Notes under the pieces: generated by a model
The model's input: the letters and a program-made list of their open reading frames with translations, nothing else
The model's database searches: none
Told to the model about the DNA's origin: nothing
Shown here: piece by piece, positions 35,976 to 40,267 of the stretch
Numbering within the stretch: position 1 is the stretch's first letter
Layout: each line of letters begins with the position of its first letter
Assembly (NCBI GenBank): GCA_963766715.1
Contig: CAVYBH010000012.1
Location: 712,916-776,915, forward strand
DNA length: 64,000 nucleotides
Direction: 5' to 3'
Source: an uncultured delta proteobacterium
Lineage (GTDB): Bacteria > Myxococcota > Myxococcia > Myxococcales > Anaeromyxobacteraceae
Translations under genes and position numbers: made by a program

Positions 35976-36833
35976 CTATTGACTTTTTTCGGGGACTATT
36001 CCGGCCACCTCGTTCATCCGTCCGGAGCGGAACGGCTCCAGGTCGAGCGCGGCGAGCGCGAACCCCGCGCCCCGGACGGCCGCCGCGATCTCCTTCCGGC
36101 GCGCGAACGCCACCTCCAGCTCCTCGGCCGCCACCTCGACCCGCCCCACCTCGCCGTGGTCGCGGACCCGGAACTGGCGCAGCCCGGCCGCCCGGACGCC
36201 CGCCTCGGCCTTCTCGATCCGGGCCAGCCGCTGCGGCGTCACCGGCGTTCCGTAGGGAATGCGGGACGCCAGGCAGGCCATCTGCGGCTTGTCCCAGGTG
36301 GGCAGGCCATAGGCCTCGCTCCAGGCCCGGACCTCGTCCTTCGTCAGGCCGGCCTCGGCCAGCGGCGAGCGCACCTGCCGCTCCCCGGCGGCGCGGTGTC
36401 CGGGACGGTGGTCGCGCCGGTCGTCGGCGTTGAAGCCGTCGAGCACCGCGGGGAGCCCGAGCTCGCGGGCGGACGCCTCGCAGAGCCGGTAGAGCTCGCT
36501 CTTGCAGAAGTAGCAGCGCTCCGGCGAGTTCTCGAGGTAGCGGGGGTCCTCCCCTTCCCGGCTCTCCACCTCGAGGTGGCGGGCGCCGAGCCGGGCCGCC
36601 AGGGCCCGCGCCTCGGCCCGCTCGGCCTGGGGGACGCTGGGAGAATGCGCGGTGAGGGCGACGGCGCGGTCGCCGAGGACCTCCCGCGCCACGGCCAGGA
36701 CCAGCGTCGAGTCGACGCCGGCGGAGAAGGCGACGAGCGCCCCCTCCGTGCCGCGCACGATCTCCTTCACCTGCTCGAGCCAATCGCGGGACCGCTCGCG
36801 GATCCGCGCCCGGTCCTCCTGCGTGAACGCCAT
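35976..36833 (-). CDS. larE: LarE-family ATP-dependent sulfur transferase
   Basis: PP-loop AFSAGVDS, RCYFCK, DG-N-DD--D-RPG, ACLASRIPYG, FRVRDHG. Confidence 0.92.
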   Translation of the reverse strand: MAFTQEDRARIRERSRDWLEQVKEIVRGTEGALVAFSAGVDSTLVLAVAREVLGDRAVALTAHSPSVPQAERAEARALAARLGARHLEVESREGEDPRYLENSPERCYFCKSELYRLCEASARELGLPAVLDGFNADDRRDHRPGHRAAGERQVRSPLAEAGLTKDEVRAWSEAYGLPTWDKPQMACLASRIPYGTPVTPQRLARIEKAEAGVRAAGLRQFRVRDHGEVGRVEVAAEELEVAFARRKEIAAAVRGAGFALAALDLEPFRSGRMNEVAGIVPEKSQ

Positions 36834-36842
36834 GCTGCGATT

Positions 36843-37604
36843 CTACCCGCGGCGACCCTTCGCCGCCGCCTTCGCCTTCGCGGGCGGCTTCGGGGATGGC
36901 TTGGCGGGCGCCTTCTTCGCGGGAGCCTTGGCGGGCGCCTTGGCAGGAGCCTTCGCGGGGGCCTTGGCCTCCGGCTTCTTCGCGCCCTTGGCGGGAGCGG
37001 CCACCGCGCCCTTCGCGCCGCCCCGCTTCGGGCGGAGGCCGCCGGTGAGCAGCGCGAACTCGGCCGGGGTGACGTACTTCATGTCGACGAGCTTCTGGAA
37101 GAGCCGGCCCAGCGCCGCGTCGGGCTTCTCCTGGTCGGTGCGGACGACCAGCTCGGCGTGGGTGGGCGGCTCGTACGGATCGTCGATGCCGGCGACGTTG
37201 GTGAGCTCGTGGGCCAGCGCCTTGCGGTACATGCCCTCGGTGTCGCGGGCCAGCAAGGTCTCCATGGGCGCGTCGACGAACAGCTCGACGAAGCGGCGGA
37301 CGTCGCGCCGGATGGCGTCCCGCGCGTCGCGGAACGGGGACAGGGAGGCCACCACCACCACCGCGCCGTGGCGCACCAGCATCCGGGCGACCGCCCCGAT
37401 GCGGCGCACGGCCGTGTCCCGATCCTCCTTGGACACGCCCAGGCCCCGGGTGAGGATCTCGTTCGCGGAGTCGCCGTCGATCACCTCGGCGGGACGACCG
37501 GCGGCGGCGAACCGCTTTCCGAGGTGGTTGGCGAGGGTGGTCTTTCCCGCACCCGTCATCCCGGTGAGCCAGATGACGAACCCCGCCCCTTGCGACTGAT
37601 CCAT
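36843..37604 (-). CDS. cysC: Adenylyl-sulfate kinase with Lys/Ala/Pro-rich tail
   Basis: IWLTGMTGAGKTT, DGD, ARDTEGMY, GIDDPYEPP. Confidence 0.9.
   Translation of the reverse strand: MDQSQGAGFVIWLTGMTGAGKTTLANHLGKRFAAAGRPAEVIDGDSANEILTRGLGVSKEDRDTAVRRIGAVARMLVRHGAVVVVASLSPFRDARDAIRRDVRRFVELFVDAPMETLLARDTEGMYRKALAHELTNVAGIDDPYEPPTHAELVVRTDQEKPDAALGRLFQKLVDMKYVTPAEFALLTGGLRPKRGGAKGAVAAPAKGAKKPEAKAPAKAPAKAPAKAPAKKAPAKPSPKPPAKAKAAAKGRRG
36905..36970 (-). repeat. Imperfect 12-nt coding repeat (AKAP units) in the cysC tail
   Basis: EAKAPAKAPAKAPAKAPAKKAPAK. Confidence 0.8.
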
Positions 37605-37722: not shown

Positions 37723-38177
37723 CTATCCGGTGCGGAGCCAGGCCACTGCGCGGAACGCCCCGTCCTGCCATTGAAATACCTGGATTTCCGTGACTTTTCC
37801 GGATCGGGTCCCGATCACGATCTGGTCCACGCCGCCCAGGACCGGCGCGCCGTCCAGAGCGCCTCCGCGACGTCCACCTCGGACAGGCGCGCCGCGGCGT
37901 CCACGTGGGAGTGATAGACGGCGGCGATCCGACCGCCGTCGCGCCGCAGGCGGCGGGAGAGCGCGAGGTGCGCCGCCGGGTCGGCCAGGTAGGCGCGGCG
38001 GGCGTCCCCCGGGGCCCCGGGAGCCCATTCCCGCTCGCCGGCGACGTTGCGGGCGGGCACCACCTCCACCTCCCCATCCGGGGCGACCGTGACGAAGCCG
38101 CACACCTCCCGGGCCGGATTGGCCTCCGCGAGGGCGACGAGCCGGGCGGCGACGGGCGCGTAATCGACGGCGGCCAC
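37723..38177 (-). CDS. JAB/JAMM (M67) metalloprotease (indel near 37856)
   Basis: EVCG...HSH-x7-S-x2-D (HSHVDAAARLSEVD); C-terminus continues in the 37723..38103 frame. Confidence 0.9.
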
Positions 38178-38190
38178 GCCGGGGCGCCGA

Positions 38191-38892
38191 TCAGGGGAAG
38201 GCCGGCGCGGAGGCCGGGGCGTTGCAGGCGCAGCCGGCCTGGCGCGCCGTGGCCCGGGTCAGCGGCGTGCCGCGAAAGATCTCGATCCGCCGGTTGCGGG
38301 GCTCCTGCGCGGTGCCCGAGAGGAGCAGGACGAGCTCCAGGGCGGCGAGTGCACCGACCGTGGCAGCGCCCTCCGGGGTCGGCGGGGCGCCGAGCCCCGG
38401 GCGCGTCGCACAGGCGTAGCAGGGCGCGCCGGTAGGGACCGTCGTCGCGGCACCGCCTTGCCCGTCGACGTCCGCCACCACATGGGGGAGTTGCAGGAGC
38501 CTCGCCTCCTCGGCGATGGCCCTCGACACCTCCGCGGTGGCACCGCAGACGAGGAGCGCCGTGGGGCGTGACCCGGGGCGGAACACCTCGACCTTCACGA
38601 GCGAGCTCGCCGCCGCTGCGAACTCGGCAGAGGCCGCTCCCCGGGGGCGGCCGACCTCGGCTGGCCCGAGCGCCCACCCCGCGCCGTCGCCCGCCGCGAC
38701 CGCGTCGGGGTCGTCGAGCCAGACCGTACCCACGCCGGCGGCCGCGAGGTAGTAGAGGGCCGGAACGGTGGCGAGCCCGCCGCCGACCACGCGCACGCGT
38801 GCGCCTCGAAGTCGCTCCTGCGCCTCCTCTCCCATGCCGGGGAGGATCAGCTGCCGGGCGTACCGAGCCACCTCGGCTTCGTTCAGGGCCAT
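38191..38892 (-). CDS. ThiF/MoeB-like protein with degenerate active site
   Basis: [20 protein letters not shown]-terminus and [12 protein letters not shown]; lacks GxGxxG, SNLxRQ and the catalytic Cys. Confidence 0.85.
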
Positions 38893-39158
38893 GTCCGCTC
38901 CTCCGCCAAGGGGCCCCGCTCCAGCCAGGCCCTCCACGTTCCCTCGCCCTCCTCCGGCGCAGCCTCGAGGCGGAGCACCCGGTGCCCATCCTCCGCCGCG
39001 CTCCGGGGCACGTTCTCGCGAGGCTCCCCCTCCCTCAGCAGCACCTCGAGGACCTCTCCCTCGTGGAGCCGCCCCAGGGCGATCCGGGCCTTCACCCAGG
39101 TCAGCGGGCAGGCGTGGGGACGGATGTCGATCCGCGCGGCCGGCACGCGGTCGGTCAT
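38883..39158 (-). CDS. TusA/SirA-family sulfur carrier
   Basis: [32 protein letters not shown]...[14 protein letters not shown] overlaps the upstream stop. Confidence 0.9.
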
Positions 39159-39863
39159 CCCGGCTCCTGCGTCGCGCCGGCGAGCGCGCTGCAGACCGGG
39201 CAGCCGGGCCGGACGCGCAGCGGGACGAGCCGCGTGCGCCCCGAACGACCGTCGAAGGTCACGAGCCGCCCGGCGTAGGCGCCCCGCTCGCCCGCGAGCA
39301 GGCGGAGGGCCTCGGCGCCCATCAGGCCGCCCGCGAAGCCCGCCAGCGCCCCCAGCACGCCGGCCTGTGCGCAGGTGGGAACCGTCCCCTCGGCGGGCGG
39401 CGCCTCGAAGAGGCAGCGCAGGCACCCGGTCTTGCCGGGCATGACGGTCAGGAACTGGGCCGAGTAGCGCAGCACGCCGCCGTGCACGAGCGGCCGCCGC
39501 GCCGTGAGCGCGGTGTCGTTGGCGAGGAAGCGCGTGGAGAAGTTGTCCGACGCGTCCACGACCACGTCCACGCCCTGCACGAGGGCCGAGGCGTTGTCCG
39601 GGCCGAAGCGCGCGTCGTGCGCCTCGACCTTCACCGCGGGGTGGAGCCGCGCCAGCCGGGCTCGCCGCGGCCGCGGCCTTGCGCCGCCCCAGGTCGGCCT
39701 CGCCGAAGAGCGGCTGCCGGTTCAGGTTGGAGGTCTCCACGGCGTCCTCGTCGACGAGCACGAGACGTCCCACCCCGGCCGCCGCGAGCGCCAGCGCCGC
39801 CGGCCCCCCCAGGCCGCCCACGCCGATCAGGAGCGCGCTCTTTTCCGACGGCGATACGCCCAT
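39155..39863 (-). CDS. ThiF/MoeB E1-like adenylyltransferase (indel near 39661)
   Basis: [43 protein letters not shown]. Confidence 0.92.
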
Positions 39864-39895: not shown

Positions 39896-40267
39896 TCAGA
39901 ACCCGACGACGTGCCCCTCGGAGGCGCCCCGCCACTGCTCGGGGAGGCTGCGAACCGCGTCGAGCCGGGGACGCGCCGACTCGGGGTCGAGGCCGACGAG
40001 GCGGAGCTCCGTGTCGCAGGCCACGACCTCGATGCCCAGGTCCCGCCTCCCCTCCTCGAGGAGCAACGTGAGCGAGCCGACACGGGCCGCGTCTGCGCCG
40101 GCGGGCATCCCGTCGTCGAAGCGCCCCTCGATCCAGGCGCGCAGCGGCTCCCCGGAGAGCGCGACCACGACGGGGTGACCGAAGGCGCCCGCGGTGAGGG
40201 CCAGCGAGACGGCCCGGCGCCTTGCGTTCCAGCCAGCGCCGTCGAGCAGGATCAGGCACGGCTTCAT
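39896..40267 (-). CDS. DsrE/DsrF-like protein
   Basis: Alpha/beta pattern with GIEVVACDT; GGAGG RBS; first gene of the sulfur cluster. Confidence 0.65.
   Translation of the reverse strand: MKPCLILLDGAGWNARRRAVSLALTAGAFGHPVVVALSGEPLRAWIEGRFDDGMPAGADAARVGSLTLLLEEGRRDLGIEVVACDTELRLVGLDPESARPRLDAVRSLPEQWRGASEGHVVGF

Follow-up and report, generated by a model that had tools for sequence, protein, structure and literature searches.

Two genes of a sulfur-related operon in the window, as we call the whole stretch of 64,000 nucleotides analysed here, encode ThiF-fold proteins that have lost complementary parts of the same enzyme, and we consider it likely that together they form an active/inactive heterodimer which activates sulfur carriers of the CysO/ThiS/MoaD type and is convergent on the eukaryotic E1 enzymes. 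That the two proteins, E1-A and E1-B (A and B in the following), form a heterodimer is very probable, and the arginine of B probably matters for catalysis, as the initial annotation had proposed. This reading is drawn from motif losses, co-occurrence, selection, gene order, gene fusions and the status of the pair as sole activator in four genomes, all of which are directly established, together with a modelled A:B interface. The features of the operon are listed in Table 1.

Table 1. Features of the E1-A/E1-B operon in the window.
Feature	Position	Strand	Basis
LarE-like ATP-dependent sulfur transferase (larE)	35976..36833	(-)	TIGR00268, 308 bits vs cut-off 150
Adenylyl-sulfate (APS) kinase (cysC)	36843..37604	(-)	PF01583 1.9e-45; TIGR00455 above cut-off
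JAB/Mec-like metalloprotease	37723..38177	(-)	PF14464 5.1e-12; C-terminus in another frame
E1-B, inactive ThiF-fold subunit with arginine helix, two dimer helices and probable zinc site	38191..38892	(-)	PF00899 3.4e-15
RYARQ of E1-B, Arg13 = MoeB Arg14 / ThiF Arg11 (arginine finger)	38851..38865	(-)	Profile alignment to 1jw9, 1zfn
tusA/sirA-like sulfur transferase	38883..39158	(-)	PF01206 1.7e-15; overlaps A and B; same place in most relatives
E1-A, helix-less ThiF/MoeB-type adenylyltransferase, predicted catalytic subunit	39155..39863	(-)	PF00899 in both frames; motifs
DsrE-like small protein (lead only), first cluster gene in most f1 genomes	39896..40267	(-)	ESM Atlas DsrE cluster

The genes are arranged on the minus strand in the order DsrE-like gene, E1-A, tusA, E1-B, JAB gene, cysC and larE. 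A and B had initially been taken as direct neighbours, but tusA lies between them. The DsrE-like protein had no match in Pfam or NCBIfam, and its assignment is a lead only, taken from an ESM Atlas cluster with a score of 0.94 in which 22% of the members carry the Pfam DsrE domain. In the assembly, the JAB gene apparently misses one base near 37852, which is present in a contig of metagenome X1. The APS kinase has a long C-terminal tail rich in Ala, Lys and Pro that is present in all families examined, and a gene for a PilZ-Hsp70 fusion (L038:10521-12947) lies just upstream of the cluster in several genomes of f1, the family of the window. A search for a sigma-70 promoter gave no match, the plasmids searched for B gave none either, and no RNA holder was listed.

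The motifs given for E1-A in the initial annotation are all present, namely GVGGLG (39807-39824), SNLNRQ (39714-39731), DASDNF (39539-39556), CLRC, PTCAQAG and CPVC. Its statement that the N-terminal RYxRQ helix is missing was also correct: the gene starts 13 codons 5' of the P-loop, and the 32 nt between the upstream stop and this start contain the GGAGG described. A helix hidden upstream by an indel or a wrongly placed start can be ruled out, as the frames of many orthologs close 16-23 codons before the P-loop and those of family f8 start 7-9 codons before it. The A proteins have a length of 215-258 aa and consist of the ThiF domain only, with neither a catalytic-cysteine domain nor a ubiquitin-fold domain; their crossover-loop cysteine is near-invariant, with Asn in G024. 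PF00899, which describes the ThiF/MoeB/E1-like superfamily fold, is above the cut-off for both A and B. The window copy of A, scanned as two pieces because of its frameshift, stays below the cut-offs of TIGR02355, TIGR02356 and NF004281. Among the matches listed, the closest named relatives are Anaeromyxobacter and Myxococcales records with 62-71% identity to A, which suggests a position of the window within or close to the Anaeromyxobacteraceae.

What did not hold is the description of E1-A as one open reading frame, since a +1 frameshift near 39663 splits the window copy. An assembly error is the most likely cause of this frameshift, because the orthologs in the loci of relatives, unlike the window copy, are in a single frame and because the extra base is absent from one contig each of metagenomes X1 and X2, which come from different studies; the X1 contig has only 2 other differences over 318 nt. 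Further single-base frameshifts in the assembly, in the JAB gene (37852), in a second A copy (G000:C8 near 617140) and in a cysK gene (G000:C16 1219-2423), suggest sequencing errors. The alternative, that E1-A of this genome is a genuine pseudogene belonging to a decaying pair, would concern this copy only and would be compatible with any of the readings discussed below. The frameshift does stand in the assembly and the MoeZ-type E1 of the genome could cover the function, but the near-identical contigs of the two other studies, the other single-base breaks and a GC3 that remains high before and after the break make a pseudogene improbable.

E1-B shows the opposite set of losses. As initially described, it keeps RYARQ while its P-loop reads GGGLAT and SNLxRQ is gone, and DxxDN is absent as well. 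The reported loss of the cysteine holds for the crossover loop only; B is not free of cysteines and keeps a probable zinc site composed of CYAC and CAC. The equation of the RYxRQ arginine with MoeB Arg14 agrees with the B profile, which aligns RYaRq with RYNRQ of MoeB, and a model of a B ortholog (pLDDT 91.5) matches ThiF and MoeB with a TM of about 0.8. Across 50 aligned B sequences with a mean column identity of 37%, the residues R10, R13, Q25 and G53 alone are invariant. The most strongly conserved parts are the N-terminal helices, the helix after the dead P-loop and the long C-terminal helix (0.55-0.62), with 0.31-0.43 in most other parts. Thirteen B proteins on intact contigs of families f7, f8 and f9 comprise only 94-128 aa; these retain the three conserved parts and can miss Pfam altogether.

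According to the initial annotation, a B that is not conserved and shows no purifying selection would speak against the pair. The dN/dS of B, calculated pairwise with a simple counting method on GC-rich genes, is 0.18 in the genus of the window (below 1 in 55 of 55 pairs) and 0.15 in family f6 (105 of 105 pairs), similar to the values of A, which are 0.16 and 0.17, respectively. Values below 1 in all pairs rule out that B is a decaying pseudogene; B is under purifying selection and, to judge from its conserved parts, is conserved for its interface. The label ThiF/MoeB adenylyltransferase under which B is annotated is hereby corrected. Similar proteins occur elsewhere. P0031, P0037, P0041, P0044 and P0048 are near full-length ThiF-fold proteins of 238-260 aa that kept RYxR and lost SNLxRQ, and the same fold, length range and motif pattern are found in P0065, P0073, P0083, P0086 and P0104. 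All ten are possibly younger or separate B-type subunits of other lineages. P0101, which has the length of a MoeZ (410 aa), keeps RFSRH and has an altered P-loop and SNLxRQ, is a possible inactive MoeZ.

The complementary losses predicted for relatives were found throughout. The operon was tabulated in 77 genomes of eight coded families, and the 5' end of A is on the contig in 70 of them. None of these 70 A carries RYxRQ, which was sought as R[YWFH]xR[QH] in the 45 codons preceding the P-loop, and each of the 70 is accompanied by B in its locus; A orthologs that keep the motif or occur without B, which would have contradicted the initial annotation, were thus not found. A starts 6-27 codons before its P-loop, compared to 30-38 codons in full E1s, and keeps [ST]NLxRQ in 69 of the 70 cases. 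The arginine corresponding to MoeB Arg14 is retained in all 76 B with a visible 5' end (of 77), one of which was read across a frameshift, and both SNLxRQ and GxGG[LI]G are absent from all 75 B that are in frame. B was detected by similarity score and its start placed by motif, the sole failure of the motif being one frameshifted case.

As many loci had been found through B, a search starting from A was added, which covered 61 genomes of the order. The pair is present in 49 of them, with the 5' end of A beyond the contig edge in 2. The remaining 12 comprise ten with nothing but full-length E1s in the opened loci and two whose loci were left unopened. A helix-less A on its own was not seen in this search. 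Among the best 80 GTDB loci, read by eye, all 5 helix-less E1s are accompanied by B, one of them in an unclassified deltaproteobacterial record (L195), and all 75 full E1s lack it. The metagenomes contributed two further loci with the pair, and another two helix-less E1s are located on contigs that break off too early. The B profile was also applied to 24 genomes of another class, a minority of whose loci were opened, and gave no strong match there, the best E value of 1e-24 being at the level of ordinary E1s. Since the genomes are kin, these counts are not independent trials; read from the sequences, the complementary A/B pattern is lineage-wide across most of one order. In addition, three f1 genomes carry a second, directly adjacent pair, A2-B2, without tusA (L031:8879-10238 on G000:C8, L037:7176-8592 and L098:4046-5442). 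A2 also lacks SNLxRQ, DxxDN and the crossover cysteine, and both A2 and B2 look catalytically dead, yet they travel together.

The A:B complex was modelled from an intact A (G008) in duplicate, a single B of the same genome, ATP and Mg. Although two A copies were offered, B took the dimer interface with a score of 0.92, compared to 0.02 for the best control. This mark is attained by 116 of the 157 solved complexes and by 2 of 215 mismatched pairs. The task differs from the calibration of the tool, the output covers neither A-A pairing nor ATP contacts, and the score may reflect the likeness to solved MoeB/ThiF dimers. The runs agree in at least 82% of the contacts and the pLDDT of the partners is at least 88. 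The best run shows B in contact with a single A copy, via helices A 172-187 and B 174-188, and the modelled interface includes residues 9-14 and 16-20 of B and the SNLNRQ region of A (44-55). A tyrosine that is kept in full E1s (47 of 56) and in B (90%) is lost in A, and in the model Tyr48 of B touches A. A search of A for a newly acquired conserved Arg or Lys able to replace the arginine finger found none.

The loss of the helix is in itself no proof that A needs B for catalysis, because helix-less E1-like enzymes can be active. The study on the yeast enzymes Tcd1 and Tcd2 reports that MoeB and ThiF do not depend on their arginine finger, that TcdA has none and that the matching change R59A in Tcd1 lowers the activity by only 26% (PMC13139853); for UBA5, a short isoform is reported to be active without the N-terminal extension (PMC2888440). 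A homodimer of A could therefore work, all the more as A keeps its own dimer helices, and B would then be dispensable and act as a modulator or inhibitor, tuning or poisoning this dimer. We regard this as quite unlikely, as there is no locus with A and without B (0 of 70), as an inhibitor has no need of an arginine finger and as B took the modelled interface despite the presence of a second A, a result subject to the reservation about solved dimers. The case for the pair thus rests on the co-occurrence, the retained parts of B, the fusions and the model.

A second possibility accepts the heterodimer but assigns B a chiefly structural role, in which it would maintain A in a folded, soluble or regulated state, with the arginine contributing little to catalysis. 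The dispensable finger of MoeB, ThiF and Tcd1 would agree with this, as would the dependence of Tcd2 solubility on Tcd1, which is stated in the same study (PMC13139853), and the dimer helices of B are about as strongly conserved as its N-terminal helix. It is nevertheless rather unlikely, given that Arg13 is present in 76 of 76 B, the 100-residue forms included, despite the low mean column identity. The obligate active/inactive heterodimer of the initial annotation can be upheld as a heterodimer, which is supported by the co-occurrence, the fusions, the short B forms, an outgroup with an unsplit enzyme and the complex model, whereas its obligate nature and the need for the arginine are unproven.

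The outgroup genome G139, from another order of the class, has the gene order Rrf2-cysK-E1-tusA-carrier-cysM-JAB-cysC, in which the single E1 is complete (RHSRQ) and B is missing. This operon, although known from one genome only, fits a duplication followed by a division of labour. In a quick tree of 102 active domains, A is placed apart from the MoeZ-type genes of the same genomes, and a derivation of A from the MoeZ of its genome is thus unsupported. A requires four label changes on the tree, which is compatible with one origin or with several.

Natural fusions of both subunits were found among the best 150 matches of the B profile, in the orders B-A (P0033, P0069, P0151), A-B (P0042) and A-TusA-B (P0081). 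They came from a full HMMER scan; a word-indexed search for longer B forms, which is a weak search, found none. P0069 is located on four contigs and has P0151 as its cluster mate, and P0042, P0081 and P0033 are single sequences known from the protein alone. In the tree, none of P0033, P0069 and P0042 is linked to the A clade. Searching with the inactive portion of P0069 brought up no further fusions at E 1e-8, and the metagenome scan gave no contig with a fusion of this type. The model of P0069 (pLDDT 83, pTM 0.87, residues 13-25 poorly predicted) has BilD as its top structural match, with Z 30.6 over 336 residues at an rmsd of 3.5 across both halves, and it also matches Uba1, UBA6 and UBA7 across both halves with Z 25-27 over about 340-350 residues. 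Within the operon, the fusions B-JAB, A-TusA and A-carrier occur as well (L151:4883-5878, L156:2867-3865, L106:4332-5216, L149:4196-5146), and in L052:9560-10531, P0002, P0039 and P0139 a MoaD/CysO-like carrier is fused via its Gly-Gly to the N-terminus of B. Such a carrier-B fusion would need cleavage to be usable, possibly with the JAB protein as the cutter. As operon neighbours fuse this readily, the fusions of A and B are weakened as evidence; with three of them being single sequences and separate origins conceivable, they are treated as supporting evidence only.

A Gly-Gly carrier is encoded between A and B in 21 of 25 loci of f6, 12 of 12 of f8, 2 of 2 of f5 and 1 of 1 of f7. The family of the window has a carrier in the operon in 1 of 32 loci, where it is fused to B, and cysK and cysM are mostly gone too. 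The loci of f5, f7 and f8 and that of G139 combine the carrier with a cysM-like gene and JAB, cysM being the best match but below the cut-off; the window has only JAB of this set. In four f3 genomes, A and B are the only ThiF/MoeB-type genes and MoeZ is absent (one has a TcdA-like gene); one of these genomes is a single contig at 100%. All four have thiS beside thiG, and three have moaD. Because A and B are the only activators of this type there, the pair would by exclusion serve these household carriers. The genome of the window encodes ThiS, a MoaD-MoaE fusion, a stand-alone MoaD-like protein and a complete MoeZ-type E1, with no carrier in the operon. The MoaD-MoaE fusion (L035:6714-7367 on G000:C13) contains an internal Gly-Gly and is a candidate substrate of the JAB protease of the operon.

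A third alternative holds that A or B pairs with the complete MoeZ-type E1, or that B has an unrelated job, the linkage of both genes being inherited gene order. Most genomes, including that of the window, do have a full MoeZ-type gene. The four f3 genomes, however, have A and B without it, A and B were copied jointly and without tusA to second sites in three genomes, and the B-A fusions invert the operon order, which makes this alternative very improbable.

In the mechanism that we infer for the heterodimer, comprising binding, catalysis, the role of the arginine, the substrates and the order of events, a single thiF/moeB-type gene would have been duplicated in an ancestral sulfur-carrier operon (cysK, E1, tusA, CysO-like carrier, cysM, JAB, cysC), and the copies would have lost complementary parts. 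A would have retained the ATP site with the P-loop, the SNLxRQ arginine, the lysine and the Mg-binding aspartate and lost the N-terminal helix, whose sole job in a homodimer would be to reach the ATP site of the partner subunit. B would have lost the ATP site and retained the arginine helix and the two dimer helices. Both would then form a 1:1 heterodimer with a single adenylation site, completed by Arg13 of B, which would adenylate the C-terminal Gly-Gly of a sulfur carrier. The adenylated carrier would take up sulfur from TusA, perhaps also from DsrE, and the JAB protein would trim or recycle it. The carrier would be the CysO-like protein of the operon where present and ThiS, MoaD or a stand-alone MoaD-like protein where the operon carrier has been lost, as in the family of the window.

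The operon carrier is SAMP-like, with 2 of 3 tested passing the NCBIfam SAMP1 cut-off, and no E2-like gene was noticed among the ORFs of the operon, to which this check was confined. A bolder proposal is that the Myxococcota replayed, independently and in full, the route to a ubiquitin-type E1, from homodimer via two-gene heterodimer and minimal inactive subunit to fusion, and that the heterodimer also tags proteins. We consider this unlikely; if true, the SAMP-like carrier, the near-invariant crossover cysteine of A and JAB would constitute an E2-free conjugation system, and the doubly degenerate A2-B2 pairs would be pseudo-enzyme dimers with a new role. If the heterodimer is real, it would be the missing bacterial counterpart of the SUMO/NEDD8 E1 design, spread across most of one order. 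As one lineage offers an outgroup with an unsplit enzyme, B of full length, B of 100 residues and fusions, the change from a symmetric to an asymmetric E1 becomes testable on small soluble proteins. The pair also offers a direct test of the purpose of the arginine finger and defines a minimal inactive domain.

The best sequence and fold matches of both A and B are MoeB and ThiF from E. coli (1JW9, 1ZUD); A shares their adenylation motifs and the sulfur-carrier context is the same. MoeB and ThiF are, however, homodimers with two sites, in which each chain has an ATP site and an arginine helix. In the present pair the two elements are distributed over separate genes, and neither A nor B combines the ATP site and the RYxRQ helix in one chain. 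In the eukaryotic SAE1-UBA2 and NAE1-UBA3, the arginine is supplied by the inactive subunit. SAE1-UBA2 and NAE1(APPBP1)-UBA3 are likewise two-gene heterodimers of an inactive and an active adenylation subunit, as set out in the literature (PMC12355090), and separate subunits with complementary motifs are also what A and B present. They differ in that A and B are bare domains of 100-250 aa with no catalytic-cysteine or ubiquitin-fold domain and with no E2 seen in the operon. A scores 70-73 bits against UBA2 and 60 bits against UBA3, and an ordinary full E1 scores 68-70 and 62 bits. As A is no closer to these proteins than an ordinary E1, convergence is indicated, and the scores give no sign of shared ancestry with the eukaryotic E1s. 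The eukaryotic parallel drawn in the initial annotation therefore stands as a likeness of architecture that looks convergent, and a bacterial case in a single chain was already known.

This case is BilD (8TZ0, 8TYZ), a bacterial enzyme with one active site and Arg9 from the inactive domain, according to the 2023 preprint, which also states that the other known bacterial E1-like enzymes are homodimers (PMC10557695). BilD is a single chain with a CYS domain that works with an E2 in antiviral conjugation, whereas A and B are encoded by separate genes of a sulfur operon, at a chromosomal site that is conserved. We found no two-gene active/inactive E1 of bacteria in the literature searched, which included two 2025 ThiF reviews searched by word ("heterodimer" 0 times) and did not extend to subscription papers, supplements and the 2009 survey by Burroughs et al. 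The operon is akin in gene content to the CysO-CysM-Mec-MoeZR system of mycobacteria (PMC3227635) and to the class 4e operons of Iyer et al. (2006) (PMC1779556), with which it shares the carrier, the JAB protease, cysteine synthase, SirA/TusA, APS kinase and an E1 without rhodanese; in contrast to A and B, these systems use one complete E1. Yeast Tcd1-Tcd2 is a paralogous ThiF-fold active/inactive heterodimer from a homodimeric ancestor, whose inactive partner gives the arginine finger, but it is eukaryotic and acts on tRNA (ct6A) with a largely dispensable arginine (PMC13139853). The two-gene active/inactive E1 proposed here for bacteria would stand next to the already known single-chain BilD and the two-gene Tcd1-Tcd2 of yeast.
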